DNA of 64,000 bases from Acetobacteraceae bacterium (lineage in GTDB: Bacteria > Pseudomonadota > Alphaproteobacteria > Acetobacterales > Acetobacteraceae). A program made the translations under genes and the position numbers. The notes beneath the pieces are model-generated. The model was not told the origin of the DNA, searched no databases, and saw only the letters and a list, made by a program, of their open reading frames with translations. Where the stretch lies: assembly GCA_965231175.1 (NCBI GenBank), contig CBDDMJ010000009.1, positions 60,496 through 124,495 on the forward strand. Reading direction: 5' to 3'. Within the stretch, counting starts at the first letter, position 1; each line of letters opens with the position of its first letter. Shown piece by piece: positions 4,285 to 23,964 of this stretch.

Positions 4285-5010
4285 ATGACTGTGACCGCCA
4301 CTGCCGTGCCCATGTTGACGGATAATTATGCCTGGTTGTTGCGTGAATCGGCGACCGGGAAAATCGCCATTGTCGACCCGGCCGAGGCAGCCCCGGCGAT
4401 CGCTGCCATCGACGCTTTGGGCGGCAAGCTCGATTACATATTTCTCACCCACCACCATGGCGACCATATAGACGGCGTGCCGGAATTGGTTGAGCGTTAT
4501 CACCCCGCTGTAATCGGCAATGCCGGGGATGCCCACCGTTTGCCGAAACTCGACAATGCTGTGCATGAAGGCGATCTGGTGAATTTCGGTGCCGCCAAGG
4601 CCCGCGTCATCGACGCCCCCGGCCATACGCTCGGGCATATTGCTTATTACATCGCCGATGGCGGCATATTATGCTGCGGCGATACCATGTTCAGCCTGGG
4701 TTGCGGGCGGCTGTTCGAGGGCACGCCGGCGGACATGTTTGGCAGTTTGCAGAAATTCGCTGATCTGCCGAAAGACACGCTGGTTTGTGCCGGCCATGAA
4801 TATACCCAGAGCAATGCCAAATTCGCCCTGGCCATGGACCCGGACAATGAGGCCCTTAAAACCCGCGCCGATGAGGTGACCCGCCTGCGTGCCGCCGGCC
4901 AGGCCACTCTGCCGGTGAAGCTGGCAACCGAGCTGGCAACCAACCCGTTCCTGCGCGCGCCGGATGCGGAGACATTGGGGAATTTGCGGAAGGCCAAGGA
5001 TCATTTTTAG
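4285..5010 (+). CDS. gloB: hydroxyacylglutathione hydrolase (glyoxalase II)
   Basis: MTVTATAVPMLTDNYAWLL..., with the metallo-beta-lactamase motif THHHGDH and GHTLGH. The ATG at 4285 lies 7 nt after AGGAGA. Confidence 0.85.
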   Translation: MTVTATAVPMLTDNYAWLLRESATGKIAIVDPAEAAPAIAAIDALGGKLDYIFLTHHHGDHIDGVPELVERYHPAVIGNAGDAHRLPKLDNAVHEGDLVNFGAAKARVIDAPGHTLGHIAYYIADGGILCCGDTMFSLGCGRLFEGTPADMFGSLQKFADLPKDTLVCAGHEYTQSNAKFALAMDPDNEALKTRADEVTRLRAAGQATLPVKLATELATNPFLRAPDAETLGNLRKAKDHF

Positions 5011-5081
5011 AAGGCAAGGAAGCAGCAGGTAAACCGGCGGGCCAATGTGTTTTCAATGCAGTGGGATTGTTTTCGCATTTA

Positions 5082-6779
5082 TCAAAGATTTCCAGCGGCC
5101 AATAGATCGGCTGCGTGATGGGCGGCGCGGGCGGATAACGCCATATAGGTCAGGGACGGGTTTTGAACTGCGGTGGATGTCATGCAGGCGCCATCCGTAA
5201 TGAATAAATTTCCTACATCGTGGCACTGGTTCCATCCATTCAGCACCGAGGTTTTTGGATCCCGTCCCATACGGGCTGTACCCATTTCGTGAATGCAGTC
5301 TCCCGGTATGCTTGGAACAATCGTTTCAGGTTCAGGGCTATCGATATCCACAGCGCCGATTTTTTGAAGAATTTCAACGGCGTCTTTTGACGCTGCACGA
5401 ACGAGTTTCCATTCATTCTTGCCCATGACAGCATCGATATCGGCAATCGCCCCACCCCATTGGTCGGTTCCGCCCTTGTAAATCCGCACGCGATTTTCTG
5501 AATTCGGCAGGGTTTCGCCGAACATATCCAGGGTGACGCGCCAATTCCCCGGCATGCGGTTGCTTTTCTTGAAGGCTTCCCCGATACCGGGCCGGTTCCC
5601 CGACCAGCCCGGACGCGCGCAGTATACCTGGAAAGCAAACCCGCGCAGATAGGCTTCATCGATTTCCGTTACGTTTCGATAACGTGGAATGTAACTGGGG
5701 GTGGGGCGCCTGCCCGAATAATATTCATCCTCAAATCCCGGTAATGTGGCGCTGATGCGCGGCCCGCGCACATGGTCCATGAGATTTCTACCAACCTGAT
5801 CGCTCCGATTGGCCAGGCCATTCGGAAAGCTTGCAGATTTTGAATTCAACAGGATGAGCGCCGTGGCGATTGTCGAGGCATTTAGAAATATCAGCCTTGC
5901 ATTATAGATGCGCCGTTCTCTGGTTTGCGTATCGATCACATTGACGCCGGTTACCTTTTGGGTCCGGGCGTCATAATTGACCGAATTTACGATCGTATCC
6001 GTCAGAACGGTTAAATTTCCGGTCTGTCTGGCGGCGGGAATTGTAGCCGAGACAGATGAGAAATAAGCGCCGAAGCTGCATCCATGAAAACATTGGTTGC
6101 GTACCTGACACTGTCCGCGACCGAGGGCGGCCTGTTGGTCCGTTACCCGGCGGAGATTTGCCACCCTGCCGATGATGAGTTTGCGCGTCGGGTAATTCGT
6201 TTCAAGACGTTTCTTGAATTCTGTTTCTGCACAGGTCATCTCGAACGGCGGCAGAAAATCGCCGTCGGGTAATTGGGCAAGCCCTTCCGTAGTACCGGAT
6301 ATACCGATAAATGGCTCAATTTTGTCGTACCAGGGGGCGATGTCTTCATACCTGATGGGCCAATCGACGCCGTGCCCATCTTTAAGATTTGCTTCAAAAT
6401 CCATTGGCGACCAACGATAGCAGAGCCGGCCCCACATTAATGAACGGCCACCGAGCTGGTAACCACGCCGCCATTTATAGGGTTTGTTTTGGGCCGTGCG
6501 GTAAGGGTGCTCGCTGTCCTTAACCCAGAATTGTTTTGTAGACTCCTTGAAAGCGTAAAGGTCATTCTGCACCGGATAATCCCGCGCCACCTCGTCCTCC
6601 GATACGCGATCGAGATTTGTGGTCTCCCATGGATCAAGCATATCCGTGTAATCTTTTGCAGGTTCGATATCGCGGCCGCGTTCGATCATCAAAACCTTCA
6701 GGCCGCGTTGCGTCAGTTCCTTGCCGACCCATCCACCGCTGATGCCCGAGCCTACGACGATTGCATCGAAATCAGACAT
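5082..6779 (-). CDS. GMC-family FAD oxidoreductase (large subunit of a membrane/periplasmic sugar dehydrogenase type)
   Basis: 565 aa with the N-terminal FAD fold DAIVVGSGISGGWVGKEL and a C-terminal GMC block HEMGTARMG. It is the last gene of the lower-GC minus-strand operon. Confidence 0.85.
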   Translation of the reverse strand: MSDFDAIVVGSGISGGWVGKELTQRGLKVLMIERGRDIEPAKDYTDMLDPWETTNLDRVSEDEVARDYPVQNDLYAFKESTKQFWVKDSEHPYRTAQNKPYKWRRGYQLGGRSLMWGRLCYRWSPMDFEANLKDGHGVDWPIRYEDIAPWYDKIEPFIGISGTTEGLAQLPDGDFLPPFEMTCAETEFKKRLETNYPTRKLIIGRVANLRRVTDQQAALGRGQCQVRNQCFHGCSFGAYFSSVSATIPAARQTGNLTVLTDTIVNSVNYDARTQKVTGVNVIDTQTRERRIYNARLIFLNASTIATALILLNSKSASFPNGLANRSDQVGRNLMDHVRGPRISATLPGFEDEYYSGRRPTPSYIPRYRNVTEIDEAYLRGFAFQVYCARPGWSGNRPGIGEAFKKSNRMPGNWRVTLDMFGETLPNSENRVRIYKGGTDQWGGAIADIDAVMGKNEWKLVRAASKDAVEILQKIGAVDIDSPEPETIVPSIPGDCIHEMGTARMGRDPKTSVLNGWNQCHDVGNLFITDGACMTSTAVQNPSLTYMALSARAAHHAADLLAAGNL

Positions 6780-6816
6780 TCGTCATTCCTCTGAAAGGTT
6801 GGTTTCGCCTGCAATA

Positions 6817-7407
6817 TCAGCCATCCGTTGCCCAGGTTTTACCCACAGGCGTGCAGGCATTCCAGACCCCGGGAATAGCGTGATACCGCAATTCAATTGT
6901 CGCGCCGGGTTTGGATAAATAATAACTTTCGGCGATCGTCGATTTGATTTCCAGATAATCCTTAAGTGGATGATCGGCTGCGGAAAATATTTCCTGGTCG
7001 AGCGGCTTCAACCGGGCGAAACGCTGTGCCGGAGACAGGGCGATGAAGCTTCCCTCAGGCCCGTTCAGCTGGTTTTGCAGCCGGGCAAACACTGTTCGCC
7101 AGCGCCGTTTTGTATCCGGTGATGCCCAGCTGCAAAATAATTCGCCCAGAATAGCGGGAACGCCTGCTGCGAGTGCGCCTGGGGTCTCCGTCGCGGGAAT
7201 GATTGTATCGGCAAGTGCTTCCAGAAAGATGGCTTCTTTTGCGGTCAGCCTGCTTGTCTCCATCGGAGACGTGCGCCCATGGATGGGTGCGACGATCGTT
7301 ACAGCCAGCAGGTTTTGTATGAATGCGCGGCGACTCGCGTCGGCAGTTACTTTTGGCTTTTCTGATATCCCGGTTTTAGCGGCGGCAATTTTGAATGGCT
7401 CATCCAA
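6817..7407 (-). CDS. gluconate 2-dehydrogenase subunit 3 family protein (small Tat-signal subunit)
   Basis: 196 aa with a twin-arginine-like signal SRRAFIQNLLAVTIVAP. LTAKEAIFLEALADTIIP..TPGA is typical of this family. It lies immediately upstream of the GMC gene. Confidence 0.75.
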   Translation of the reverse strand: MDEPFKIAAAKTGISEKPKVTADASRRAFIQNLLAVTIVAPIHGRTSPMETSRLTAKEAIFLEALADTIIPATETPGALAAGVPAILGELFCSWASPDTKRRWRTVFARLQNQLNGPEGSFIALSPAQRFARLKPLDQEIFSAADHPLKDYLEIKSTIAESYYLSKPGATIELRYHAIPGVWNACTPVGKTWATDG

Positions 7408-8164
7408 AGAATTGTTCCGGATAGAGAGAGTTATTTGGCGTTGTTTTACTCATCGAAGCGAAGAAATCTTTTTCATAAACCCGAAAAAAAACGGCGACTC
7501 TCTGGCCCGGATGACTTCGTTCAAAGTTGCAGTGAGGAACATTTCCAGAAACGACGAACACCGAGCCTGCCGGGCCCAGCATGGGCTTGGACCCGGGGTC
7601 ATCCAAGCTGCATGAATAGCAATACTGATAGGCTTTTCCGGTTTGACCCGCCTGCAAAGCCGCGGTCACCGGCTCGCGCAGGGCTGGCCATACCACGAAA
7701 GCACCATCGTTCTTGCTGAAGACGTCATCGAGATAGACAAATATGATTGCCACGGGAGTCTTTGGAGATGGCGTTTTTTCCGCTTCCGGAAAACCATCCA
7801 AATGGGGAGCGTTGGCTAATCCGCCGGTCTCTCTGACGGCAATTTGCGGATTAATAACGCAACGCAATGGCGTTGCCGTGTGGATGCCAAGCAAAAAATT
7901 CAAGCCGCGCTTTTCCACCACCGCGCGCAACCTGTTCAAGGCAAATGCGTCGCTGGGTTCGCCGATCCAATCAGCGACGCTTGCATCGATCAGTTTCTGA
8001 CACGCCGTTACATAAGCGATCTGGTTGCGTTCCTGCTCGGTTTGACCGCTGTCGTAGGCTGCGAGAATTTCGTTGCGAACATCTTCGACCAGCGCGGCAG
8101 GTAGTTTTTCCGCGAACTCGGCAACCCCATGCGTTTGATACCGGGAATGATCTACTGCTATCAT
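7400..8164 (-). CDS. PhyH-like Fe(II)/2-oxoglutarate dioxygenase family protein (tentative)
   Basis: 254 aa. It has a possible facial triad, H-x-D in APHLDG and a distal H in GNVPHCN, followed by R (GQRVAVFFR). It overlaps the next gene by 8 nt. Confidence 0.5.
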   Translation of the reverse strand: MIAVDHSRYQTHGVAEFAEKLPAALVEDVRNEILAAYDSGQTEQERNQIAYVTACQKLIDASVADWIGEPSDAFALNRLRAVVEKRGLNFLLGIHTATPLRCVINPQIAVRETGGLANAPHLDGFPEAEKTPSPKTPVAIIFVYLDDVFSKNDGAFVVWPALREPVTAALQAGQTGKAYQYCYSCSLDDPGSKPMLGPAGSVFVVSGNVPHCNFERSHPGQRVAVFFRVYEKDFFASMSKTTPNNSLYPEQFFG

Positions 8165-8204
8165 GTGGGGTCTTTCCAGTGGGAAGATCGGCTCGAAACG
8201 CTGT

Positions 8205-10016
8205 TCAACCTTCGACGCCGGACGTCATTTCATGGCGTGCCTCTGCCGGGCGGGGCTTAAGCGAAACGTTTCCACTCCTGACGAAATCGTGAAACAGCGC
8301 GCAACGGACGTTGAGCGTCTCGAAGCTGCCGACATCGACAACCCGGCCGGCTATCATGAATATGACTTCATCGAACAGCGGCAGCAAATGCATGCGGTGC
8401 AAAGCCACGATCATGGTATTGCCGGTGAAGCCTGCCAGCAGACCGTGCATGACCCGCGTTTCGGTATCCGGATCCAGATTGCTGGTCGGTTCATCCAGAA
8501 GGACCAGGCTGCTATCCATCGCGGCGGCGACGCCCCGCGCCAGGGCGATACGCTGCCGCTGGCCGCCCGACCAGTTCGCGCCGCTTTCGTTCACGCGCGT
8601 TGTCATTCCCTTTGGCAGTTCGGAAATGAATTCCGTGGCGCATACGATCGCCATCGCCAGATCAATTTGTGCTTCCGGCAGGGAGGCGCCGAGCGTCAAA
8701 TTCTCAGCCACCGTACCGATAAATAATTCCGCTTCCTGCGGTATCAAAGTCGCTTCCCGCCGCAGATCCGTAGACTCCGCGATGCGTTCGTCGAGGCAGA
8801 TTTGTCCCGTACTCGCAATTTCCAATCCCGACAGCAAGCGCAGCAGGCTGCTCTTTCCAGCACCGCTGGGGCCGACCAGCGCATAACGCTTGCCGCGCTT
8901 CAGCGTTAAATCAACGGAATTCAGGCTGAATTCGTTTTGTTCGCCATTGAAATAACGGTAGCTGAGGTCGCGCAGCTGAAGTTCCCGCCAGTTGGTTGGT
9001 GCGATCTCAGAGACCTGGCTGGATTGCGGGGCTTGCAGGATGAATCGGGAAGAGGCAAAGCCTGCCTGGTATTCCGCAAGCATCGCGAAATTGTTGGCAA
9101 TTACGCTCATGACACCTTCGGTACGTCTGGTATATTCATAAACCATGTAAAGACTGCCCAGCGCCAGGGCGTGTGCACCGCCGCGCAAAGCCAGCATGGC
9201 ATACATTGCCAACAGCAGGCACCAGACCGCAGTGCTGGATATCGAGATACTCACCCATTTTGCCTCGTTGATCCAGGCAAAGCGGCGTAACGGCACCAGC
9301 AGCTCGTTCAGGCGCCTTTGGATCAGCACTCTTACGCCCTGGTAGCGGCGCAATGCGTAAATGGTGAACAGATTCGCAAACGTATCAGTCCAGGCAACGC
9401 TGGCATTTCGTTCCGCCTGGTTGCGCTGGGTCGACAGGTTTATCAAAATCCGGTCGAAGCCCATGCTGATGAGGCTGATCGAGGAGAAACCGAATATGGC
9501 CGCCACACCGACCCAGGGAGAGATGAAGCATAAGGCGGCTATCGGCCCGATCAGACGCACAAAATTTTCAAGATAAATATACTGGCTTTCGGAAAACTGA
9601 TGCAGCGCGTTCGTGCTTTGGATGACACGCTGTGTGGTATCCGCGGAATGCTGGGTGCGGTGCCAAACAAGCGGTGCCAGTAAAAGACGACGCAACAGTT
9701 CCATTGTGAACGCTGTCCGTATTTTCAACGCCACGTTGCGCTCTAAAATCCGGCCGGACAGATGCAGCGCCCAGCTTGCCACGGTGGTCAGAAATACCAG
9801 CCCGAGGTCGCGCCCGGCTTCGGCAATGCCGGGGCTGCCATGGTGCTGAATGGCATTCAAAGCGTGTCCTACAAACCAGGGTACTGCCAGTAAGAGCATC
9901 TCCGCGACCAATAGCAGGCCGAAGGCGCCGATCATTTTGATCCGGCTGCCGGAGGCATAATGCCACAGCCCGAAATATAAGGCGCCGAACTGGCCGAACA
10001 GAGAGCGAATGTTCAT
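8205..10016 (-). CDS. ABC exporter, fused TMD-NBD half-transporter
   Basis: The start was chosen at MNIRSLFGQ... (ATG 10016-10014). It has 6 predicted TM helices, then Walker A GPSGAGKSS, signature WSGGQRQR and Walker B LVLLDEPTS. Its ATG overlaps the TGA of the upstream chitin-synthase-like gene (ATGA). Confidence 0.85.
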   Translation of the reverse strand: MNIRSLFGQFGALYFGLWHYASGSRIKMIGAFGLLLVAEMLLLAVPWFVGHALNAIQHHGSPGIAEAGRDLGLVFLTTVASWALHLSGRILERNVALKIRTAFTMELLRRLLLAPLVWHRTQHSADTTQRVIQSTNALHQFSESQYIYLENFVRLIGPIAALCFISPWVGVAAIFGFSSISLISMGFDRILINLSTQRNQAERNASVAWTDTFANLFTIYALRRYQGVRVLIQRRLNELLVPLRRFAWINEAKWVSISISSTAVWCLLLAMYAMLALRGGAHALALGSLYMVYEYTRRTEGVMSVIANNFAMLAEYQAGFASSRFILQAPQSSQVSEIAPTNWRELQLRDLSYRYFNGEQNEFSLNSVDLTLKRGKRYALVGPSGAGKSSLLRLLSGLEIASTGQICLDERIAESTDLRREATLIPQEAELFIGTVAENLTLGASLPEAQIDLAMAIVCATEFISELPKGMTTRVNESGANWSGGQRQRIALARGVAAAMDSSLVLLDEPTSNLDPDTETRVMHGLLAGFTGNTMIVALHRMHLLPLFDEVIFMIAGRVVDVGSFETLNVRCALFHDFVRSGNVSLKPRPAEARHEMTSGVEG

Positions 10017-11851
10017 ACCGTTACTTTGCAAATCATGAGTGTGAACAACAGCGATAGTCCGGACAATTCCGCCAGCGGGCTTAGACCGTGAACGAAAATC
10101 CCCGGCAATGACAATCCGATCCCGACGGCACAGAGGTTCAACACCAGCCAGCCGGCGAAGAACAAATCCCGCCAATTGCGAAGTTTCCTGAATTCAAGCA
10201 TGCCGAGATTACTGTCCCTCTGGCCTTTGGTACCCCAGCTGAGATCGTGAAACTTGAAGACGGAATAAGTAACCAGCAACGTTTGAATGATCGGATTGAC
10301 GAACCAGGAATATTCGAAAAAACGCCTCAGGATCAGCCATCTGTGCTTATAATCCGTGAGCGCGGTTTTGAATGCCGCCAACGCAATCGGCAACATTAAA
10401 ATCATCGGCGCGCGCCATGAAAAACCGGTGGCCAGCGCCATTGTTATCGATACGAAGGCGCAGGCGGACGCAATATCACGGCAGACCGGATAAATTCGCT
10501 TGGTGGATTTGGGGGCTTTGTAGGGGGTGTAAGAAATCAGGATCGCCGCCGCGGCAATGGAAATCAAGGTTGTTGCCTCGACAAGCGGACCGGAACGCTG
10601 GATTGCCAACCAAACGCAGACCCATGTGCAAATGGTAACGGCCGGCGTGATGAATTGCAGAATGATGGTGAGAAGCTGCCAGAGCATTGCCAAAGTAAAA
10701 TGCAGCTTGCGAGTTCTTGAACGATCGGCGCGGGTTAGCTGATCCGGCAATTTGCCGAGCATCCAAAGCCGGCAAGCGGTCGTACTGTTGATCCACCGCC
10801 TGCGCTGCTGCAACAACTCGGACATGGAGCGGCAAGCGTCCGTGACCGCATGGGCGTCCGCACAAAGGTCCAATTTCCAGTCGCGATTGCCGGCAAATAC
10901 GATTTCATTGCCCAGAACGCGATCCTCAGCCAAAAACATCAATCTTTCGAGATGCGTGCTGGGATTCGTGCCCCGGAGGTAGCGCTCTACCGGGCTGCCG
11001 AGATCCTTGGATCCGGGCCTCGCCTCACTTGTGAGGGCCAGCCATCGCGTGCCGGAGAACTGGCCGGGAAGCACGCTTAAATGACCGCAGGCCAATTCAG
11101 CCGGCAACGAATAGGCGGCCTGCGTCGCGAAGTCAAAAAATTGCCATGCGTGCAGAATTTGATTTCTGGATCTGGCTGCCGGCAACTTCACGCGGGAGGC
11201 CAGCGCACCGACATTTGGCTGTAATTCCATATGATGCACCATATAGCGCATAGCATGCATGTGGATTTTCGTTCCGGTATCAAGCTGATAGCAAAAATTA
11301 GGATTTAGTTTCGTACAGAGATGCCCGAAGAATAAACCATGGCTGTCGAGCTTGCCGCGATTTTCAGGCTTGACGCAGACCACAAAATTAACCAGTGCCG
11401 CGTGTTCCGCCATCATCTGCGGGCGCGTTCCCATCGCATCCAGCAATGCCCCCGCATCAAGGGATGAGAAGTGGAGGTCCCGATTAGGAAGTGAGGAATT
11501 TTCTGTTGAAAACAACTGGTTTTCAACAAGAAACCGCATGATCGAGGCGGATAGCTTTTCGGCGCCATCGGCCAAAATACAGACGCAGGAATTGGCGCGT
11601 TCGAGGGCTGGACGTTCGGTCGCAAAATCCAGCAGGCTGATCAATAAGGCAGATAATGTTGCAAGGAATGCCTCGACCGGCTCATTATACAAAGTTATGC
11701 AGATCAGATTTGTCGGCGACAAATAATTGTCCAGAGATGTTCTGCCAGCATAATCAAGATAATGATACGTGAAGCCTTCGTTCTCTTCAGTAATGCTGGC
11801 CCATTCGGCATCAATCGTAATTGCTTTACGCAACTTGAAATCAGCGCCCAT
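10013..11851 (-). CDS. eukaryote/fungal-type chitin synthase-like GT2 glycosyltransferase
   Basis: 612 aa with ICITLYNEP, CILADGAEK, YQLDTGTK, QFFDF..HLSVLPGQFSGTRW, FLAEDRVLGNE and QQRRRWINS. C-terminal TM helices and DLSWGTKG follow. GGGAG lies 6 nt upstream of the ATG at 11851. Confidence 0.8.
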   Translation of the reverse strand: MGADFKLRKAITIDAEWASITEENEGFTYHYLDYAGRTSLDNYLSPTNLICITLYNEPVEAFLATLSALLISLLDFATERPALERANSCVCILADGAEKLSASIMRFLVENQLFSTENSSLPNRDLHFSSLDAGALLDAMGTRPQMMAEHAALVNFVVCVKPENRGKLDSHGLFFGHLCTKLNPNFCYQLDTGTKIHMHAMRYMVHHMELQPNVGALASRVKLPAARSRNQILHAWQFFDFATQAAYSLPAELACGHLSVLPGQFSGTRWLALTSEARPGSKDLGSPVERYLRGTNPSTHLERLMFLAEDRVLGNEIVFAGNRDWKLDLCADAHAVTDACRSMSELLQQRRRWINSTTACRLWMLGKLPDQLTRADRSRTRKLHFTLAMLWQLLTIILQFITPAVTICTWVCVWLAIQRSGPLVEATTLISIAAAAILISYTPYKAPKSTKRIYPVCRDIASACAFVSITMALATGFSWRAPMILMLPIALAAFKTALTDYKHRWLILRRFFEYSWFVNPIIQTLLVTYSVFKFHDLSWGTKGQRDSNLGMLEFRKLRNWRDLFFAGWLVLNLCAVGIGLSLPGIFVHGLSPLAELSGLSLLFTLMICKVTV

Positions 11852-12283
11852 GCAAGCTCCCGTTACTGGATGAAGGACGAAAATTCATTAAGAAAACGGG
11901 CCTTGCACGAATGGATTTTGCAACCGGGCGGTTGATAATGCCCCTGGTTGGGTTTGCGAGAAACCGCTGTTAAGACACTTAGAAACGATATCCATTGCTC
12001 CTGAGTAATCAAGCGAAGTAGGACGAAAAAACCACACAACACAAGCGTTTTTTGCCTTAAATAATTTTAAACCATACATTTAATATTTGTAACCCGCGTT
12101 TTTCGTTTGGTATTCTGTCTTAGAAATAAAGACTTATCACTCTCATTTGATTTCAAGTCTCTGTTAGGGCTCGATGGCATTTAGAAGCATTATTTTTGGT
12201 TTTTTAATGTTATCGGGTTGATGCAGGAAATTATTCCGAGGTCATGACTTGCATCCCATACACAAAACAACAAAAAGGGATCG
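11852..12283. promoter_or_regulatory. AT-rich divergent intergenic/promoter region between the chitin-synthase operon and the acyltransferase gene
   Basis: This 432-bp non-coding gap is the most AT-rich stretch of the window, with runs such as TTTAATATTTGTAA and TTATTTTTGGTTTTTTAATG. It lies between divergently oriented genes. No specific promoter boxes were assigned. Confidence 0.35.
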
Positions 12284-13429
12284 ATGTTAGGGCCAAGCAG
12301 TCTCAAGGAACACAGTGTAAACAGGGATATCGAGACCCTGCGCGGGGTCGCCATCCTGTTTGTCCTTTTTCATCATTTCGGATTTCTGATCATAGGCATG
12401 CCTGCATATAAAATATTCAAAAGCGATTTTGGCTTGTGGAGCGGCGTGGATCTGTTTTTCTGTATTTCAGGGTTCATTATTTCCAAGAACTATTATGAAA
12501 ATTTTGCGCGAGCCGGAAAAAGCAGTCTATTTGCTGTGACCGCGGCTTTTTGGATCAAGCGCATTTTCAGGCTTTGGCCGTCTGCCTGGCTGTGGCTTGC
12601 CCTGATGGTTTGGCAGTTTACCGTACTCGGACTGGCACCTTTCTGGAACAATTTTTCAGATACGGCGGCTGCAGTGCTCGAGGTCGCCAATTTTCACTGG
12701 TGGATGTGCGCCAACGGGCAAAGCCAATGCGGGCAAATCTCGCATTACTGGAGCTTATCGTTGGAGGAGCAATTTTACCTGTTGTTCCCGCTGCTGTTTC
12801 TCCTGCCCCGCCAGCTGCATCTATGGTTGTTTCTTGGTATTGCCGCCATTCAAATTCCCATCCCAAGGGCACCATGGCAAGATATTCTATGGTTCACGCG
12901 GACCGACGCTATTTCTCTGGGCGTATGCATATATCTGCTGTCGCGGTCGCAGGCCTATCAGCAGATGCGACCGATTTTTCTACGCAATAAGGTTGCGGCT
13001 GCGGTCATAAGTGTTGGATTGGCGGTTCTGCTGGCCGCATTTGCAGAACCGCAAGGATTTCCGCAACGGGCGATCGTGCCATTTGCCACCGGTATGGTGG
13101 CGATCATTTCAGCTTTGTTTGTTCTCCTCGCTTCTTATGATGGTGACTGGCTTTTCAACCTGCCGGTATTGCGTCCCATCCTTCTTTGGATCGGCGCGCG
13201 CTCCTATGCGATCTATTTGATTCAAGTTTTTGCCTACCAGGCTGGACAATACCTTGTTTCCAAAAGCTGGGCGGTTCGCCTGGTGCCGGCTGGCTGGCTG
13301 CCGGTCGCGACCGCCATACTGACCTTTGGTCTGTTAGGAATTCTGGCAGAATTAAATTATCGATTGCTGGAAAGGCCTTTGCGAAAGCAAGGCGCGGTTT
13401 TCGCTTCCCGAATGATGCTTAGAGTCTAA
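12284..13429 (+). CDS. acyltransferase family 3 (OafA/NolL/NodX/ExoZ-type integral-membrane O-acyltransferase)
   Basis: 381 aa and polytopic. It has the N-terminal family signature RDIETLRGVAILFVLFHH. Confidence 0.8.
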   Translation: MLGPSSLKEHSVNRDIETLRGVAILFVLFHHFGFLIIGMPAYKIFKSDFGLWSGVDLFFCISGFIISKNYYENFARAGKSSLFAVTAAFWIKRIFRLWPSAWLWLALMVWQFTVLGLAPFWNNFSDTAAAVLEVANFHWWMCANGQSQCGQISHYWSLSLEEQFYLLFPLLFLLPRQLHLWLFLGIAAIQIPIPRAPWQDILWFTRTDAISLGVCIYLLSRSQAYQQMRPIFLRNKVAAAVISVGLAVLLAAFAEPQGFPQRAIVPFATGMVAIISALFVLLASYDGDWLFNLPVLRPILLWIGARSYAIYLIQVFAYQAGQYLVSKSWAVRLVPAGWLPVATAILTFGLLGILAELNYRLLERPLRKQGAVFASRMMLRV

Positions 13430-13432
13430 TCA

Positions 13433-13572
13433 AAGGAAGCAGCCGCTTTTTTGAAAAAAAGCGGCGCAAAAAACTTTTTTGAATCTGGAGCCGGGGCGTT
13501 TCAAACACCGATGACCCAGATTAACAAAAGTCTTTTTGCTGCTTTTTCTTCAGAAAAAGCAGTGCTTGCTTA
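13433..13572. repeat. MITE/REP-like element, copy E3 (short form)
   Basis: AAAGGAAGCA + GCCGCTTTTTT/AAAAAAAGCGGC hairpin + GCAAAAAACTTTT ... CCCAGATTAACAAAAGTCTTTTTG + CTGCTTTTTC/GAAAAAGCAG hairpin + TGCTTGCTTA. Confidence 0.8.
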
Positions 13573-14709
13573 CCTTAGCGCATCAATCCCGAGTTGGGCG
13601 AGGGTGGCCCAGGCGGTGGCGGAGAGGCAGGGGCGGCGGAAGTAGGAGAATTTGGTTTCGGGTTGGCCTGGTATGAGGCTGGGGCCGGTGGTCAGGCCGG
13701 TGGCGAGGGTTGGGGCGGCGGTAGCGTAGACGTAGCCGTTGGGGGCGGTGTTGGCGGCGATGGTTGAGGTGAAATTCGTGGCCAGGGGGTGCTGGGCGCG
13801 GTGCAGGGCCAGGGCTGCGAAGGCGGTGCCTTCCAGCCAGATGCCGTGGCTGGCGGCAGAAAAGCCGATGCCGTTGCCGTGCTGCAGTTTTTGGATGGCC
13901 GCCAGGGCCGAGGCGGCGGTGCCGATTCCGGCGAGGTAGGGCCAGATGCCGGCATCGGCGGCGAGCAACGGGTTGGCAGCGCCGCCGGGTGTGAGGCCGG
14001 CCTCGAAGACGCCGGTTCGACAGCGGCTGACAACGAAGGTTTTGGCGCTGGCGGCAGCGGGCAGGCGCAGTTTGGCGAAGGCGGCGTAGACATCGATATT
14101 CTGTTCGGTGCTTTGCCAGAGCTGTTTCAGAGGATGCGGTTCGAAGCCATAGAAGCCGCCGTAAAAACCTTGCGGGGCCGAGAGATTGGCGATGATCCAG
14201 TCTGCCGCGCGTTGCGCCGGGGCGGTTTGGCCAAGGGCGATCCACAGCAGCATGGCCCAGGCCAGCGGCCCGGTGGCGGTGCCGGCCTGGTAGGGGTCTT
14301 CGCGCCATTGGCTGGCTTGCCGGTCCCACCAGCCGGGCAGTCTGGCCGGCGTTGTCATGGCGCCAGCCTGATAGGCATTGCGCAGCCGCCCGTCGGTCCA
14401 GAAGCGGTCGTGGGTTTGCGCGATCTCCAGCGCGGCGCCGATGCGGCAGGCGGCGGTGGGCTCGCCGCCTGCCAGCAGGGCGAGGCCGGCGAGGGCATTG
14501 TCATAGACATAGGCGGCATTGGCCTGGGTGAGGTCGAAGTCGGTCGCTGCCGCACCGGTGTTGACGATGTAGCTCGGCAGCAGCACCGGGCCGGATGGCA
14601 GGGCGGCCATGGTGCGGCGGATGGCCCCCAGATAATCGGATGCCAATGCCGATGGCGCGGTGGCTGGCAGCAGCGCCAGGCCGGCGGTGAGCGTGCGGCG
14701 TGAGATCAC
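13570..14709 (-). CDS. secreted hypothetical protein (possibly an alpha/alpha-toroid fold)
   Basis: 379 aa with an N-terminal signal MISRRTLTAGLALLPATAPSALA. It is Ala/Gly/Trp-rich with repeated helical blocks. The family was not recognised. Confidence 0.55.
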   Translation of the reverse strand: MISRRTLTAGLALLPATAPSALASDYLGAIRRTMAALPSGPVLLPSYIVNTGAAATDFDLTQANAAYVYDNALAGLALLAGGEPTAACRIGAALEIAQTHDRFWTDGRLRNAYQAGAMTTPARLPGWWDRQASQWREDPYQAGTATGPLAWAMLLWIALGQTAPAQRAADWIIANLSAPQGFYGGFYGFEPHPLKQLWQSTEQNIDVYAAFAKLRLPAAASAKTFVVSRCRTGVFEAGLTPGGAANPLLAADAGIWPYLAGIGTAASALAAIQKLQHGNGIGFSAASHGIWLEGTAFAALALHRAQHPLATNFTSTIAANTAPNGYVYATAAPTLATGLTTGPSLIPGQPETKFSYFRRPCLSATAWATLAQLGIDALR

Positions 14710-16845: not shown

Positions 16846-16995
16846 GAAGAAAGCAAGCAGTTCTTTTTTGAAAAAAAGAACCAAAAAACTTTTGCCATGC
16901 TGGACCATAGGCGTTTGCCTGACAGCGCCCAGGCCCAGACTCATAAAGTTTTTTTGCTTCTTTTTGTTCACAAAAAGAAGATACTTGCTTTGCTT
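16846..16995. repeat. MITE/REP-like element, copy E4 (short form)
   Basis: GAAGAAAGCAAGCA + GTTCTTTTTT/AAAAAAGAAC hairpin + CAAAAAACTTTT ... GGCCCAGACTCATAAAGTTTTTTTG + CTTCTTTTTGT/ACAAAAAGAAG hairpin. Confidence 0.8.
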
Positions 16996-19540
16996 ATGCT
17001 TGCTTGAACGCGGCATTCACCCAATAGCGCGGGGTTTTTTTGTAGCCGGTGTGGCAGTGGATGGTGACGGCCTGGGCCAGGGTGCGGCGGTCCAGCAGGG
17101 TGATGTGGTTCAGGAACCCGGCGGTGGCGGTGGCATAGCAGGCGGCGAAGGCGCGGGTGATCAGGCCGGGGCCGGTGGAGAGCCATAGTGTGTCGGTATC
17201 GCCGCGGTTGATGGCGGTTACGGCATCGGCCAGGGCGCGCATGATGACCGGGTGGCGCGGGATTGCGGCGATGAAGTTGTTGGCGAGGGTGCCGTGGTCT
17301 TCCTGGTATAATATCAGCTCGGCGCTGCCGAGGAGCGGGTGCAGTGATGCGGTGCAGCGGTCGTCGGCATCGGCGTAGATGCCGCCGGCCACGGCGAGCC
17401 ATGCCAGGCGGAACAGATCGGCTTTTTGTGCCGGCTCGCGGATGCGGCTGTAGGCGGCCTGGACGGCCGGGGGCGTGTGGCGGCGGAGAAATTGCTGCGC
17501 TGTGGTATCGTTGGCGATCTGCGCCCGGTAGTCCGGATTATGCTGCTGCCAGCTGCGCATCAGGGCGGCGACATCGGCGGGGATGTTTGTGGTGTCCCAG
17601 TAGTGCAGAATGGTTTTGGGAATGATTTGCGATGTTGGCGTGCTTGTATGGCTGGCCAGATACCCGGCCTCGGCGAGGGCCACCAGCAGGGTGACGGCGG
17701 CGGCTGTGCTATCCGGATTGGCGGCGACCACCGGGCGCAGGGCGGCCAGGCGGGGCTGCGGCGGCAGGGTTTGCAGTTTTTGCAGCTGCTGCACCAAAGC
17801 GGCATCCAGGCAGTAGTCATCGAGCCGTTGTCCGTAATGGTTTTGCGAGATATTGGGCGAGCGGCCTTGTAGGCGGATGGCAGGCAAGGTGAGCTGGCAG
17901 TAACGCTGCAAATGTCCGCGCGCCTCATCCAGCCGCAGCAGCATGGTGGTGAGGCGGATCAGCTCGGCCTGCACGGCCTCGTCCTGCGGATTTTGCGTCT
18001 CAGCGGCCTGGTATTGCGCCAGGGCTTCGGCAAACCGGCATTGCCGCTCCGCCAGCAGCCCCGCCATGCGCAAGCGCTGGGCGCGCTCGCCGGCGGTACT
18101 GGCCGGGGATGAGGCGAGGCAGGCTTGCACGGCAGCTGTATCGGCGGTGAGCATTTCGCTTTCGCAGGATTCCAGCCAGACGCCGAAATGGCGCGGCCAG
18201 GCGGCACGCGCGGCGCGGCCTCGGCTGAGCGCCTCTGCCAGGCGGCCGGACTGGCGCAGCAGGATCATTTCGATATGCGTGAGTTCGGGTGTGGGCGGAA
18301 ATTCCGCCCGCAGATTTCGCAACGCCGCCAGTGCCGGCTCGATCGACCCGCCATCGGCCAGAGCCCTGACCGCGCCGAGGCGGAAGGCCAGAAGCTGCGG
18401 CTGGCGTTGCGCCGCGGCCTGGTAGATTTGCAGTGCTGCCTGCGGGTTCTGCGCCAGCATCGCCTGCTCGGCCTGCTGGATGGTGATGTAACGGCAGAGC
18501 GGGTCCAGGCCTGCGGCCTGCGCCAACAACGCATCGCATTCCTGCTGCCGCCCCAGCAGACGCGCCTGCACCGCCATGTGTAGCAGGCTTTGCGCATGGG
18601 CCGGATGGCGATGATGCGCGGTGTGGAACAGCGCCAGTGCCGCCTCATGCGCGCCGGCCGCGCGCTCGATCATGCCGGCCACCGTCAGCGCATTCAGGCT
18701 GGCGGGATGTTGCCGCAATACGGCTTGCGCCGTGGCCCGGGCGGCCGTGAAATCCCCGGCGTCCCGCAGCTCATTGGCGATTTCAAGCCGGGCCCAGTCG
18801 TTCCCCGGCTCGGCGCGGTGTGCCCGTTCGAAATACGCCAGCGCGGCGGCGCGGTCTCCGGCGGCGCGCGCGCAATGGCCGAGACCGAGGCAGGCGTAGA
18901 ACTGTTCCGGCTGGTCCGCCAGAATTTCGTGATAGACCGCTGCCGCTGCGGCATGCTGCCCGGCCTCGCGCAGACCGGCGGCAATCTCCAGCCGGGCCAC
19001 CAGATTGTCGGGCTCGGCCGCCAGCGCGGCCTGGAAATGCGCCGCCGCCGCGTCGCCGTCTCCCGCCGCTCTGGCGCAGAAACCAAGGCCGATTTGCGCC
19101 AGGGCGGCATGCGCCGTTGCCAGCAGCGCCTGATAGATTGCCCGGGCTTCCACCAGCCGTCCCTGCTCGCGCCGCACGGTTGCCAGTTCCAGCCGTGGCC
19201 AGGGATTGCCGTCATCGGGCGCGCAGGCAAACCAACCTGCTGCTGCGGCAAGATCCCCGCGCGCCTTGGCGCACAGGCCGCGCCCCAGCAATGCGTAAGT
19301 CTGGTCCGGCTGGGCGGCGAGGATGGCGGCATAGGCTGCCTCCGCCTCATCAAGGCGGTTGAGGTGCCGCAGCGCCGCCCCGGCCTCCAGCCGCGCGATC
19401 AGATGATCCGGTGCCGCCTGCAAAGCGTTTTCAAAACAGGCGAGAGCGGCGGCGTGTTCATGGCGGTCCCGCGCCGCCAGGCCGAGGCTAAGATGCGCCT
19501 CGGCCGCCGCGAGGTCTTCAGGCGAAGGAGAACAGCTCAA
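16994..19540 (-). CDS. TPR-repeat protein fused to a C-terminal DXD-motif glycosyltransferase domain (Gly_transf_sug/OCH1-like)
   Basis: 848 aa. About 560 aa form Ala-rich TPR-like repeats (A..F..AL...P....A...LA). ILHYWDTTNIPADV and ADLFRLAWLAVAGGIYADADDRC follow. Confidence 0.7.
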   Translation of the reverse strand: MSCSPSPEDLAAAEAHLSLGLAARDRHEHAAALACFENALQAAPDHLIARLEAGAALRHLNRLDEAEAAYAAILAAQPDQTYALLGRGLCAKARGDLAAAAGWFACAPDDGNPWPRLELATVRREQGRLVEARAIYQALLATAHAALAQIGLGFCARAAGDGDAAAAHFQAALAAEPDNLVARLEIAAGLREAGQHAAAAAVYHEILADQPEQFYACLGLGHCARAAGDRAAALAYFERAHRAEPGNDWARLEIANELRDAGDFTAARATAQAVLRQHPASLNALTVAGMIERAAGAHEAALALFHTAHHRHPAHAQSLLHMAVQARLLGRQQECDALLAQAAGLDPLCRYITIQQAEQAMLAQNPQAALQIYQAAAQRQPQLLAFRLGAVRALADGGSIEPALAALRNLRAEFPPTPELTHIEMILLRQSGRLAEALSRGRAARAAWPRHFGVWLESCESEMLTADTAAVQACLASSPASTAGERAQRLRMAGLLAERQCRFAEALAQYQAAETQNPQDEAVQAELIRLTTMLLRLDEARGHLQRYCQLTLPAIRLQGRSPNISQNHYGQRLDDYCLDAALVQQLQKLQTLPPQPRLAALRPVVAANPDSTAAAVTLLVALAEAGYLASHTSTPTSQIIPKTILHYWDTTNIPADVAALMRSWQQHNPDYRAQIANDTTAQQFLRRHTPPAVQAAYSRIREPAQKADLFRLAWLAVAGGIYADADDRCTASLHPLLGSAELILYQEDHGTLANNFIAAIPRHPVIMRALADAVTAINRGDTDTLWLSTGPGLITRAFAACYATATAGFLNHITLLDRRTLAQAVTIHCHTGYKKTPRYWVNAAFKQA

Positions 19541-21401: not shown

Positions 21402-22607
21402 TTATAAGGCGATGACCCCGGCATCCGCGCTGTTCGGAAAGATGCGCGCTAACGCGGCGTTGCTAAGGCCCAAATGAGTTTGCAGGGCGGATTTTGCCAC
21501 GCTGCGAACGTCCGTGGTGGGGGCGAGGTCGCGGTTTTCGAACAACTGGCTGGGGCGCAGGCCGGGCCAGGTACCGGCGATTTTGCCGCCGCGCAGGGCG
21601 CCGCCGAGCAGCAGTGCCATGGTGGCGGTGCCGTGATCGGTGCCTTTGGTGCCGTTGATGGCGGCGGTGCGGCCGAATTCGGTGATCACCAGCACCATGG
21701 TGTTGCGCCAGGCTGGGCCGAGAGCGGTGCGCAGGGCAGCGAGCCCGGCATCCAGCCCGGTGAGCGGGGCTTGCAGGCCGTTGACCTGGTTGCCGTGGGT
21801 GTCCCAGCCTTGCAGCTGAAAGGCGGCGATGCGCGGGCCGTCCGGCGCGGCCAGCAGGGCGCCGGCCTGTTGCGCCATGGCGGGGAAATCCGCACGCGTG
21901 GCTTTGGGCTTGGTGCCATCGTCGCTCATGATGTCCACGGTCTGGCTGAGGATGCCGGCATCGAAGGCGGTGGATTTCAGGCCTTGCCGGATGGCCGGGC
22001 CGGTCAGCGGGTCCGGCGCGTTGAGGGCGGCGATGCGTGCGTACAGATCCGGCGGCGGTTTGGCGAAGCTCTCGACCGCATAGGAGGCGACCGGCATTTT
22101 GCCACGGATCAGCAGCGGCGTGCCGATGCCGACCGATAGCCCGGCCGGCTCGGTGCCGCCGGTTGGCGGCAGTTCCGCGATCGCCCGGTTGAGCCAGCCC
22201 GAGGTGATCCCGGTTTCATCCGGCACGCCGAGCTGCAACAGGTCCTGCGCCTCGAAATGGCTGCGGGTGCGGTAAGGACCGGCCACCGCGTGCACCGGCA
22301 GCACCTGCCCGGCCTGGTACATCGTATAAATGTTGGCCAGGGCCGGATGCAGGCCGTAGAACCCGCCGAGGTCGAACAGGCCGTTGGGCTGGCCGGGGGC
22401 GGGAGGCACCAGCGGCGCGCGCAGGCTCAGCAGATTGGCATCGCCGTACGGCACCACCGCCGACATGCCGTCCAGCGCGCCGCGCAGCAGCACGACGACG
22501 AAGCGCTGGTCTCCCGGGGCGGCGGCCAGGGCCAGTTTCACTCTGGCGGCGCTGGCCACCACGGCCAGGCCGAGCAATGTGGCCCGCCGCGTGAGATGCA
22601 GGGTCAT
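21402..22607 (-). CDS. DUF1501 domain protein (sulfatase-like, Tat-exported)
   Basis: 401 aa with Tat-type signal LTRRATLLGLAVVASAA and the GWDTH block (LQGWDTHGNQ). It is paired with DUF1800 upstream. Confidence 0.85.
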   Translation of the reverse strand: MTLHLTRRATLLGLAVVASAARVKLALAAAPGDQRFVVVLLRGALDGMSAVVPYGDANLLSLRAPLVPPAPGQPNGLFDLGGFYGLHPALANIYTMYQAGQVLPVHAVAGPYRTRSHFEAQDLLQLGVPDETGITSGWLNRAIAELPPTGGTEPAGLSVGIGTPLLIRGKMPVASYAVESFAKPPPDLYARIAALNAPDPLTGPAIRQGLKSTAFDAGILSQTVDIMSDDGTKPKATRADFPAMAQQAGALLAAPDGPRIAAFQLQGWDTHGNQVNGLQAPLTGLDAGLAALRTALGPAWRNTMVLVITEFGRTAAINGTKGTDHGTATMALLLGGALRGGKIAGTWPGLRPSQLFENRDLAPTTDVRSVAKSALQTHLGLSNAALARIFPNSADAGVIAL

Positions 22608-22611
22608 GGGT

Positions 22612-23964
22612 CTATCTCCGTTGAAATTCCGGCGCGGCGAATAGCAGGGTCAGCGCCTCGCGCCGTGAGCCGGCCGCCGCCATCGCCGTGGCGGTGGCCG
22701 GGCGCAGCAGCGGCCCGAGCGCCACTGCTGCGATCGCTGCCGGCTGCGGGCCATTCGCACCATTGTCGAAGCGCGCGGCATAGGTATAGGCCCAATCGAT
22801 CCGGCTCAGCACCGCTGCCCCGCCATCCCAGTCGGCGGCCTGGCTGGACCAGCCGTTCGGCAACGGGGCGGCCCATAACGGCTGGCCCATCTGGCTCAGT
22901 ACGGCGGCGTAGTTCACCGGCGGCTGGTCCGGCGGCGGCGGGGCGGCGCGAATGGCGGAGAGAACGAACTCCATCGGGGTTTTGAGTTTGGTGAGGCCGC
23001 TCCAGGCGGCCGTTACTTCCAGCAGCGCCAGGGCCGCCGCCGCCAGGTCACCGCCGGTCTCCCGCAAGCGCCCGGCGATGTGGGCCACCGCCGCCGGCGG
23101 CGGGGTATCGGCGATGAAATGCGCCGCCAGCTGCTGCGCGATATGGTTGTAAGTGGCCGGATGCCGCGACAGGAAGGTCAAGGCGTCGATGCCGCCCTGT
23201 TCGCCGCCGCCGAAGCGCCGGCCCATGACCGTCTGCGGCCCCGGCTGATGCGCCCGCGGGCGGAACAGAAAGCCGGTGGCATCCCCCTGCCCGTCTTTGG
23301 CGCTGATCGACCAGCCGGTGAGCAGCCTGGCCATGCTGGTGACATCGGCCTGGCTGTACCCGGCGGCCAGCCCGACAGTGTGCAGCTCCAGGCATTCGCG
23401 GCCGAGGTTTTCGTTCAGGCCGCGGCCGGTGCGCTGACCCGCCGGGCTATCCGGTCCGACCGAAATATCGTTGGCGAGGTAGCGCAGCATCGCCGGATGA
23501 CGCTCTGCCGCCAGCAGCATGCCGGTGAAATTGCCGGTGACATGCGGGCGGATCGCCTCCCGGATGAAGGGTCCGGCCAGCGCGGCGGTTTGGCCCTGCA
23601 AAATGCTGACGGTGAAATGATTGGCCCAGAACCAGACCAGATGTTCACGAAACCCGACCGGCACTTGCGCCGCCCAGCCCATCTGCGCGGTGCTGTCGGC
23701 GCGGTACAGCGCCTTGGCCTGGGATTTGAACGGCGCTGCCGGCGTTCCGGCCTGGAGCAAGGCGCGCCTTGCCTTGAGATCCGCGATGGTGGCCTGCACC
23801 GCGGTCCGGCCATCCGGCAAGCCGGCAAAACCGGGGCTGTTCAAGGCCGGGTCCGGTCCGGCGAGGTCGGCGCGCAGCAGCGCCATGGCATCGTCCGTGG
23901 CCGCGGTACCCCATAACGGGCCCAGCCCGAAGCGGATCAGCGCAGGCGCCGTCATGTTGTCCAT
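22612..23964 (-). CDS. DUF1800 domain protein
   Basis: 450 aa with the LVWFWANHFTVS block characteristic of DUF1800. It lies 4 nt upstream of the DUF1501 gene. Confidence 0.85.
   Translation of the reverse strand: MDNMTAPALIRFGLGPLWGTAATDDAMALLRADLAGPDPALNSPGFAGLPDGRTAVQATIADLKARRALLQAGTPAAPFKSQAKALYRADSTAQMGWAAQVPVGFREHLVWFWANHFTVSILQGQTAALAGPFIREAIRPHVTGNFTGMLLAAERHPAMLRYLANDISVGPDSPAGQRTGRGLNENLGRECLELHTVGLAAGYSQADVTSMARLLTGWSISAKDGQGDATGFLFRPRAHQPGPQTVMGRRFGGGEQGGIDALTFLSRHPATYNHIAQQLAAHFIADTPPPAAVAHIAGRLRETGGDLAAAALALLEVTAAWSGLTKLKTPMEFVLSAIRAAPPPPDQPPVNYAAVLSQMGQPLWAAPLPNGWSSQAADWDGGAAVLSRIDWAYTYAARFDNGANGPQPAAIAAVALGPLLRPATATAMAAAGSRREALTLLFAAPEFQRR

Follow-up and report, generated by a model that had tools for sequence, protein, structure and literature searches.

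What does a eukaryote-type chitin synthase (CHS) do in a bacterium, and do the genes packed around it act on the same product? This question is raised by a six-gene island at positions 5082–13429 of a 64,000-nt stretch of an Acetobacteraceae genome (contig CBDDMJ010000009.1). The whole stretch is called the window below, and the island coordinates are window positions. A product has yet to be demonstrated for any bacterial CHS-type synthase. In 2016 the family was recognized in a dozen genomes; it can now be seen at more than 130 loci in Proteobacteria, Cyanobacteria, Bacteroidota and Desulfobacterota. The window carries a compact, intact, five-plus-one-gene version of the CHS island. The favored reading, given about an even chance and resembling CslA-GlxA in its synthase-oxidase logic, is that the island makes a secreted or surface N-acetylglucosamine (GlcNAc) glycan that would be exported and then oxidized in the periplasm. 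Comparison of the bacterial CHS loci points to a minimal recurrent unit, consisting of CHS, a small subunit with a twin-arginine translocation (Tat) signal and a GMC dehydrogenase, that moves as one island.

Gene content and organization of the island

Open reading frame (ORF) calls bore out all six genes proposed in the first-pass annotation, together with their order and coordinates. The features of the island are as follows:

5082–6779, minus strand: GMC dehydrogenase, 565 aa (Pfam GMC_oxred_N and GMC_oxred_C)
6817–7407, minus strand: Gluconate_2-dh3 small subunit, 196 aa (Pfam PF13618, 1e-16; twin-arginine motif SRRAFIQ)
7400–8164, minus strand: predicted PhyH-type Fe(II)/2-oxoglutarate (2OG) oxygenase, 254 aa (family profile, motif and predicted fold)
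8205–10016, minus strand: ABCB-type (type IV) half-transporter exporter with a transmembrane domain (TMD) and a nucleotide-binding domain (NBD), 603 aa (Pfam ABC_membrane and ABC_tran)
10013–11851, minus strand: CHS-like processive GT2 synthase, 612 aa (Pfam Chitin_synth_1, 2e-14; Chitin_synth_2, 8e-14)
11852–12283, no strand: AT-rich divergent intergenic region, 432 nt, 39.6% GC (composition and sequence)
12284–13429, plus strand: AT3 integral-membrane (O-)acyltransferase, 381 aa (Pfam Acyl_transf_3, 5e-23)
13442–13465, no strand: perfect palindrome with a 10-bp stem, GCCGCTTTTT/AAAAAGCGGC, full sequence GCCGCTTTTTTGAAAAAAAGCGGC (terminator-like scan and sequence)

Pfam supports the identities originally given to the CHS-like, ABC TMD-NBD, Tat small subunit, GMC and AT3 proteins. 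Reading of the sequence also confirmed the tight packing of the minus-strand genes, with gaps of 40 nt or less or overlaps. The CHS stop and the ABC start share an ATGA, giving a 4-nt overlap; 40 nt separate the ABC gene from the PhyH-like gene, which overlaps the small subunit gene by 8 nt; and a 37-nt spacer follows before the GMC gene, with an AGAGGA ribosome-binding site preceding its start. The ABC start is M54 of a longer ORF, and the resulting 603-aa product is identical to an entry of the protein collection. TTG is the sole canonical start of the small subunit gene upstream of the twin-arginine (RR) motif. With five co-directional genes and junctions of −4, 40, −8 and 37 nt, a single transcription unit is plausible. 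The AT3 gene is transcribed divergently, as had been claimed, on the plus strand across the 432-nt spacer. This spacer is presumed to be the promoter region for both transcription units; an Rfam scan of it matched no family. The palindrome lies directly 3′ of the AT3 stop, between the convergent ends of AT3 and of a neighboring gene, orf379, and may serve as a terminator for both directions at the island's right edge.

The six island genes have a GC content of 0.51–0.57 and a GC content at third codon positions (GC3) of 0.55–0.68; AT3, with a GC of 0.507, is in line with the others. Clearly native genes on both sides have a GC of 0.64–0.68, with a GC3 of about 0.80 in the right flank, and GloB, at the left edge of the island, is intermediate (GC 0.58, GC3 0.67). 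The six genes are one horizontally acquired low-GC island of about 8.3 kb.

Chitin synthase and ABC exporter

The synthase matches PF01644 with 54.2 bits (cut-off 25) and PF03142 with 51.5 bits (cut-off 27), and no eukaryotic Chitin_synth_1N domain (PF08407) was found in it by Pfam. Its N-terminus is short, the cytosolic glycosyltransferase domain starting near residue 44, and about six hydrophobic helices occupy the C-terminal part (segments at 383–608). The best relatives in the PDB are Chs1 of Phytophthora sojae (1e-27), yeast Chs1 and Chs2 of Candida albicans, while scores against the bacterial GT2 families of NCBIfam are far below cut-off (PgaC_IcaA, 19 bits versus 422). The motifs EDR (309–311), QRRRW (349–353) and WGTKG (539–543) are invariant across 25 bacterial homologues, at least 90% of which also conserve S538, and all of these motifs align to Phytophthora sojae Chs1. 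The complete set of hallmark motifs, together with eukaryotic CHS structures as the closest PDB matches, predicts a catalytically intact enzyme.

The exporter has ABCB1, ABCB4 and ABCB19 as its PDB relatives. Assignments to MsbA, CydDC, NdvA, type I secretion systems or PglK were rejected, no NCBIfam subfamily attaining its cut-off. The protein is an ABCB-type fused half-transporter, translationally coupled to CHS.

Small subunit and GMC dehydrogenase

The SRRAFIQ sequence of the small subunit aligns with the RR motifs of five homologues. The GMC protein has no signal peptide and no hydrophobic N-terminus, and starts directly with the GxGxxG motif binding flavin adenine dinucleotide (FAD). Its best PDB matches are the large subunit of fructose dehydrogenase, FdhL (1e-41), and the alpha subunit of the FAD-dependent glucose dehydrogenase (FAD-GDH) of Burkholderia cepacia (8e-32). 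In the alignment with FdhL, Cys224, Cys230 and Cys234 fall on its C(C)xxxxCxxxC stretch and form a putative 3Fe-4S-type motif. In this dehydrogenase class the cysteine motif is conserved and binds a 3Fe-4S cluster, and the small subunit serves as the Tat hitch-hiker (PMC6719666). Judged by these sequence features, the island GMC protein belongs to the hitch-hiker/3Fe-4S class of FAD dehydrogenases.

The same combination of a GMC subunit carrying the 3Fe-4S cysteine motif and a Tat-bearing Gluconate_2-dh3 subunit is found in the heterotrimeric complexes FdhSCL of Gluconobacter and gamma-alpha-beta FAD-GDH of Burkholderia cepacia. Both of these systems, unlike the island, have a gene for a multiheme cytochrome c subunit; none of the island proteins or scanned flanking ORFs has a cytochrome c domain. 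The identity of FdhL and GDH-alpha to the island GMC protein is modest, and the closest relatives of the latter are two-subunit enzymes of glycoside or sugar catabolic clusters. The small subunit and GMC pair thus appears to have been drawn from, or to belong to, a common pool of glycoside/sugar dehydrogenases.

A recurrent cluster was observed around the closest GMC homologues (L067, 5865–17631; L151, L152, L153 and L154). It reads GFO_IDH_MocA/AP_endonuc_2/small subunit/GMC/AP_endonuc_2/PhyH/IU_nuc_hydro, with or without MFS, ThuA and GH30 genes, and looks like a periplasmic glycoside-oxidation (3-keto-type) catabolic pathway.

Distribution of the partner genes among bacterial CHS loci

The CHS loci compared came from 54 GTDB species representatives, 80 metagenomic loci and a few exact look-ups, 139 loci in total, of which 136 were non-redundant (1.71 Mb). 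Their ORFs were clustered and queried with the six window proteins and the partner proteins. The metagenomic loci were found with an alignment query; a single-protein CHS query found no relatives. Partner genes were found in the 139 CHS loci as follows:

DUF1501: 21 loci
DUF1800: 19 loci
Nonribosomal peptide synthetase (NRPS)-like A-T-TE: 19 loci, or 30 by family clustering
ABC exporter, at least 70% query coverage: 11 loci
Carbamoyltransferase: 3–4 loci
Small subunit and GMC: 3 lineages
PhyH-like: window only
AT3: window only

Besides the window, CHS is linked to a small subunit and GMC pair in two lineages, and no further pair was present in the 1.71 Mb of non-redundant CHS-locus DNA. In the first (L065/L066), CHS, small subunit and GMC genes follow one another on the same strand with an ATGA overlap; the CHS is 40% and the GMC 69% identical to those of the window. 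This triad forms a block with a GC of 0.37–0.46 between flanks of 0.55–0.58, with transposase genes downstream, and L065 has no ABC gene with it. The second is a metagenome-assembled genome of Cellvibrionaceae (L023, 5340–16222), in which CHS (29% identity) and GMC (43%) belong to a one-strand series of small subunit, GMC, a 700-aa protein without a Pfam match, CHS, an 815-aa cytochrome c/propeller protein and a GH3 glycosidase. The Pfam matches of the 815-aa protein, to a cytochrome c domain and to a pyrroloquinoline quinone (PQQ)-type beta-propeller, are weak and lie below threshold; this protein could be the electron acceptor that the window island lacks. In a crude neighbor-joining (NJ) tree of CHS, L065 is sister to the group (window, (L001, L055)). 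The minimal triad makes the question of the bacterial chitin synthase product directly testable by expression of three genes.

The exporter is also a recurrent partner. The closest CHS relatives (L001, L055, L002, L003 and L008; 35–48% identical CHS) read CHS/A-T-TE/ABC/DUF1800/DUF1501, with an A-T-TE protein of about 890 aa (for example, L002, 296–10011). Full-length ABC orthologues stand beside CHS in all five and are 42–55% identical to that of the window, while the best full-length matches at more distant CHS loci reach at most 33%; CHS and ABC are therefore a clade-conserved core. L055 (5809–18186) adds a NodU-type carbamoyltransferase. The five-gene cluster, of which no description was found in the literature, suggests an acylated or aminoacylated, carbamoylated chito-oligosaccharide. 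The window island lacks the A-T-TE and DUF1800/DUF1501 genes of these sister loci.

Other CHS islands contain carbamoyltransferase (Carbam_trans_N/C) and methyltransferase genes, A-T-TE acyl or aminoacyl loaders and 2OG/JmjC hydroxylases. Wider neighbors of CHS also include NRPS C domains, thioesterases, cupin/JmjC proteins, epimerases and short-chain dehydrogenases/reductases. The sister islands thus have Nod-like decorating genes. In its general logic, the original proposal that a synthase, an exporter and tailoring enzymes cooperate on a modified GlcNAc glycan is a reasonable one. CHS-type genes reach far beyond the dozen bacterial genomes of 2016: the loci (among them L009, L011, L012, L015, L018, L028, L030, L033, L041 and L047) extend to Cyanobacteria, Bacteroidota, Geobacter and Desulfobacteraceae, and methyltransferase, cupin/JmjC, epimerase or NRPS genes are often their neighbors.

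PhyH-type oxygenase and AT3 acyltransferase

The PhyH-like protein on its own has no match in Pfam, NCBIfam or PDB sequences, and when 5.8 billion proteins were searched by word index, it matched nothing but itself. Exhaustive HMMER scanning of 1.84 billion representatives revealed 19 distant homologues (E ≤ 1e-3). Residues Q107, H121, D123, G124, H211, R222 and R228 are invariant in the alignment, and H121-x-D123...H211...R222/R228 corresponds to an HxD...H facial triad followed by a 2OG-binding arginine. A profile of 17 distant homologues matches GriE (4.6e-7), HygX, SnoK, human PhyH and ectoine hydroxylase in the PDB, and nine of 18 family members match Pfam PhyH (best 3.4e-7). The alignment-based AlphaFold2 model has a pLDDT of 88.8, compared with only 36 for a single-sequence prediction; the top Foldseek matches of the former, including ColD, HygX, TlxI, SnoN and SyrB2, are all Fe/2OG oxygenases (E about 1e-9, TM-score 0.5–0.6). 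Profile, motif and predicted fold agree in placing the protein in a very rare subfamily of PhyH-type Fe/2OG oxygenases, so that the initial PhyH-like call was right despite the lack of a Pfam match of its own. The predicted double-stranded beta-helix fold, the triad and the 2OG-binding arginine are features of HygX, SnoK/SnoN, ColD and GriE as well; the island protein differs from these in being only 13–18% identical to them, at TM-scores of 0.5–0.6, and in its tiny family (about 20 representatives in 1.84 billion). Having no signal peptide, it is presumably cytoplasmic.

Some relatives of this oxygenase (L059–L064) were seen in an organosulfur-type cluster with genes for a luciferase-like monooxygenase, an NMT1-type binding protein and an acyl-CoA dehydrogenase, and others in a Fic/transposase (mobile-element) island.

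In the AT3 protein, Acyl_transf_3 covers residues 14–350, there are multiple hydrophobic segments, and no SGNH domain is fused to it. The PhyH-like and AT3 genes are tied to the island only by position and composition.

Comparison with known systems

Eukaryote-type synthases of this kind are not new in bacteria. Goncalves et al. described in 2016 division-1 CHS genes in about a dozen bacterial genomes, in horizontally transferred operons, some of low G+C content, with DUF1800/DUF1501 and variable neighbors, among them a NodH sulfotransferase, a taurine dioxygenase, an epimerase and efflux genes; a chitin exopolysaccharide (EPS) or a chito-oligosaccharide was proposed as the product (PMC5122149). 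The view taken at first, that no pathway with such a combination had been described, was in this respect overstated. No functional study of bacterial CHS islands after 2016 was found in the literature. The window island shares with the division-1 islands the eukaryote-type CHS family with a short N-terminus and no Chitin_synth_1N, the lower G+C content of the region, the operon-like packing and the presence of variable tailoring and efflux neighbors (PMC5122149). It differs in lacking the adjacent, co-oriented DUF1800 and DUF1501 genes found there, in its set of ABCB, PhyH, small subunit with GMC, and AT3 genes, unreported for those islands, and in its host, as none of the dozen bacteria described belongs to Acetobacteraceae. 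The synthase family, the motifs and the island character place the window with the division-1 CHS islands. Its partner set is new, while the kind of island has been known since 2016 and is not categorically new.

In CslA-GlxA of Streptomyces, a GT2 synthase depends on an extracytoplasmic oxidase (PMC11022532). The likeness to the island is an analogy in logic only: a processive GT2 synthase is encoded beside an extracytoplasmic oxidoreductase that would be coupled to it. GlxA, however, is a membrane-anchored copper radical oxidase, whereas the partner in the island is a putative FAD/3Fe-4S GMC enzyme with a Tat hitch-hiker, and CslA is a cellulose-synthase-like protein of a Gram-positive host, whereas the island synthase is of the CHS type.

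The resemblance to Nod-factor biosynthesis, to which the first-pass annotation pointed, does not extend to the membership of the gene set, which includes no NodC, NodA, NodB or NodIJ. Both systems combine a synthase of GlcNAc oligomers, a predicted one in the island, with an ABC exporter and a protein of the AT3 family, and the carbamoyltransferase, methyltransferase and acyl-loading genes of the sister CHS islands recall Nod decorations. The synthase is NodC in one case and of the CHS type in the other; NodI and NodJ form an ABC-2 exporter with separate NBD and TMD, in contrast to the single fused ABCB-type polypeptide of the island; and the tailoring set of the island is oxidative, with no nod-box or NodD. 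No match to a NodA family or to a deacetylase family such as that of NodB was found among the six proteins or the scanned flanking ORFs (Pfam, NCBIfam). The island AT3 protein falls, like NolL and NodX, in the AT3 family (Acyl_transf_3), which is very broad.

Proposed pathway and alternative explanations

In the proposed pathway, CHS in the inner membrane, with the homology and motifs described above, would polymerize UDP-GlcNAc to a beta-1,4-linked GlcNAc chain or oligomer, the substrate and the chain length being what we infer from them. The ABCB-type half-transporter would move this product, or a cytoplasmically modified form of it, across the inner membrane. Before export, the cytoplasmic PhyH-type oxygenase might hydroxylate or otherwise oxidize the product or its precursor; this step is the weakest link. 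The twin-arginine small subunit would carry the folded FAD/3Fe-4S GMC protein into the periplasm, by the hitch-hiking established for this class. There the GMC enzyme would oxidize a sugar hydroxyl of the exported glycan, passing electrons, like the characterized members of its class, probably to a periplasmic acceptor rather than to O2, and AT3 may O-acylate (acetylate) the glycan at the periplasmic face. The result would be a small chito-oligosaccharide-like glycan, oxidized and acetylated, that is secreted or exposed at the cell surface. The functional heart of such a pathway would be the triad of CHS, small subunit and GMC, analogous to CslA-GlxA. A decorated oligosaccharide is favored over a structural polymer because the CHS family occurs among Nod-like and small-molecule tailoring genes. 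More boldly, and as a tentative proposal that we regard as doubtful, a subset of bacterial CHS-like enzymes could form an obligate pair with a Tat-exported GMC enzyme, in three lineages through independent recruitment or common descent, making a new class of oxidized (keto- or aldonate-type) and, here, O-acetylated chito-oligosaccharides or glycans secreted by proteobacteria.

A number of observations weigh against a dedicated glycan pathway. Co-occurrence elsewhere, which had been named as the check on the six-gene set, was found for two of its parts, CHS with ABC and CHS with small subunit and GMC, but not for the whole: no other instance was detected among the 136 non-redundant CHS loci, and the set is confined to this organism and a 96%-identical relative. 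None of the other loci has a counterpart of PhyH-like or AT3, the nearest PhyH-like homologues (42% identity) sit in unrelated contexts, and most close CHS relatives have A-T-TE, DUF1800 and DUF1501 genes in place of the GMC pair. The island has neither a cytochrome c subunit nor another obvious electron acceptor. The GMC family itself is very large, with more than 8000 matches at E < 1e-50 and hundreds at about 60–70% identity. Scans of the island for promoter and terminator consensus sequences gave scores not above shuffled background, including one weak sigma-70-like match on the minus strand (12093–12064), and are uninformative on transcription.

The relative itself provides a further point of this kind. 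Its metagenomic contig (L057/L058, 96% identical) retains the CHS, ABC, PhyH-like and small subunit genes, its stretch 4780–14162 being the relative of window positions 6783–11561. It departs from the window sequence 4 nt upstream of where GMC would start, and an integrase/ArdC element follows, with genes for a phage-type integrase, ArdC/MPTase, another integrase and an AIDA/Hint protein. L150, a contig of the same sample but of a strain that is somewhat more divergent, keeps the window order small subunit-GMC-gloB-...-purM-purN. In L057/L058 the operon has apparently been split by insertion of a mobile element into the 37-nt spacer.

The main rival, which we consider unlikely, is that the island is a mosaic, in which a CHS-ABC remnant of the CHS/A-T-TE/ABC/DUF1800/DUF1501 cluster lies next to a PhyH-like/small subunit/GMC module, the latter being a periplasmic glycoside or sugar dehydrogenase of catabolic or oxidative-fermentation type, which would lie downstream by chance and act on external sugars and not on what CHS makes. 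The parting of GMC from the rest of the operon by the element in the near-identical relative would fit such an origin. So would the relatives of the GMC pair: of four contexts inspected among its closest members (67–70% GMC identity), three are sugar clusters of a catabolic type that carry GFO_IDH_MocA, AP_endonuc_2, MFS, PhyH and IU_nuc_hydro genes, where a PhyH-family gene also adjoins GMC, and a more distant GMC gene, with about 68% DNA identity over part of the gene, lies on a Novosphingobium plasmid in the order ThuA-MFS-sugar isomerase-small subunit-GMC. The small subunit of the window is as close to a catabolic one (49%, L067) as to a CHS-linked one (47%, L065), and a CHS-specific GMC clade was unsupported in a crude NJ tree, in which the GMC proteins of the window and L065 are not exclusive sisters. 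Acetobacteraceae, the host family, are known for periplasmic FAD sugar dehydrogenases of this architecture, and FdhL is the best PDB match. The linkage of the GMC pair to CHS is then either repeated recruitment or, under this rival, coincidence. Coincidence is argued against by the ATGA fusion and the shared island composition in L065, where the pair is joined to CHS within a low-GC island; the pair is also operonic with CHS in L023, and no other pair occurs in the CHS-locus flanks. Moreover, the AP_endonuc_2, GFO_IDH_MocA and sugar-transporter genes of the catabolic clusters are absent from the window island, its PhyH-like protein is not specifically related to the PhyH of those clusters, an identity rejected at an hhalign probability of 2%, and all its genes have the same foreign composition and tight coupling.

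If the product were instead a structural, chitin-like exopolysaccharide or biofilm polymer, long-chain, O-acetylated and partly oxidized, it would be extruded through the CHS channel, with the ABC protein exporting a primer, a lipid or a by-product. The six or so C-terminal helices and the full processive motif set of CHS resemble those of channel-forming eukaryotic enzymes, and in L065, where the triad has no ABC gene, only the synthase itself can bring the product to the periplasm. Surface polysaccharides are commonly O-acetylated by AT3 proteins. A chitin EPS was among the products suggested in 2016 (PMC5122149). This explanation is nevertheless improbable: a polymer that translocates itself would hardly account for an ABCB exporter that is conserved and translationally coupled, the CHS relatives lie among NRPS-like, small-molecule-type tailoring genes, and Pfam finds in the island none of the components typical of synthase-dependent EPS systems of Gram-negative bacteria (outer-membrane porin, secretin, TPR scaffold, c-di-GMP receptor). 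It is very improbable that the island is a silent or decaying remnant of horizontal acquisition with no current coordinated function. A foreign composition and an AT-rich control region are typical of xenogeneic silencing, the A-T-TE and DUF1800/DUF1501 partners of the sister loci are gone, and mobile-element activity is seen at the locus in the relative; against this, the six ORFs are intact and full-length with preserved catalytic motifs, the start/stop overlaps are retained, and the second strain has the same arrangement, with intact ORFs and 96% DNA identity.

Should the coupling of synthase and oxidase be true, it would provide a new route to oxidized or acetylated chito-oligosaccharides, compounds with known activity on plant and animal receptors, and a biosynthetic role for the very abundant, poorly understood two-subunit GMC dehydrogenases. 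An obligate pairing of the two enzymes would be a counterpart, in bacteria, of CslA-GlxA and would open a route outside the rhizobia to decorated chitin oligomers, which might act in signaling or in the matrix. If the coupling is false, what remains is a sugar dehydrogenase next to a foreign CHS-ABC remnant, an ordinary mosaic.

Host and genomic surroundings of the island

The EF-G gene of the window (24423–26504) encodes a protein in the same 90% cluster as those of Acidocella and Acidiphilium, and the host is therefore a member of Acetobacteraceae; the genome is Acidocella/Acidiphilium-like, that of an acid-loving bacterium. The island lies between gloB and the dienelactone-hydrolase/ornithine-decarboxylase genes. 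No tRNA genes and no convincing flanking direct or inverted repeats were found at the island borders, and the island in the window has no integrase. A search of the plasmid collection revealed DNA-level relatives for the GMC gene only and none for CHS; the island is therefore not a known plasmid-borne cassette.

The gene abutting the island on its right, orf379 (13570–14709, minus strand, 379 aa), encodes a protein with a Tat-like N-terminus, MISRRTLTAGLALLP...ALA. It was rejected as an island member: its GC of 0.68 is native, and it has no match in Pfam, NCBIfam or PDB sequences. DUF1800 (22612–23964) and DUF1501 (21402–22607) genes, both on the minus strand and of native GC, lie 9.5 kb from the CHS gene. 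Elsewhere such a pair is the hallmark partner of bacterial CHS, but this copy was rejected as a displaced CHS partner in view of its native GC and of an identity of only 30% to CHS-linked DUF1501, and it probably has nothing to do with the island. Another gene of native GC, 3.5 kb off the island (16994–19540, minus strand), encodes a protein of 848 aa that has a TPR array at its N-terminus and, at its C-terminus, a glycosyltransferase domain of the Gly_transf_sug (DXD)/capsule-synthesis-like type.

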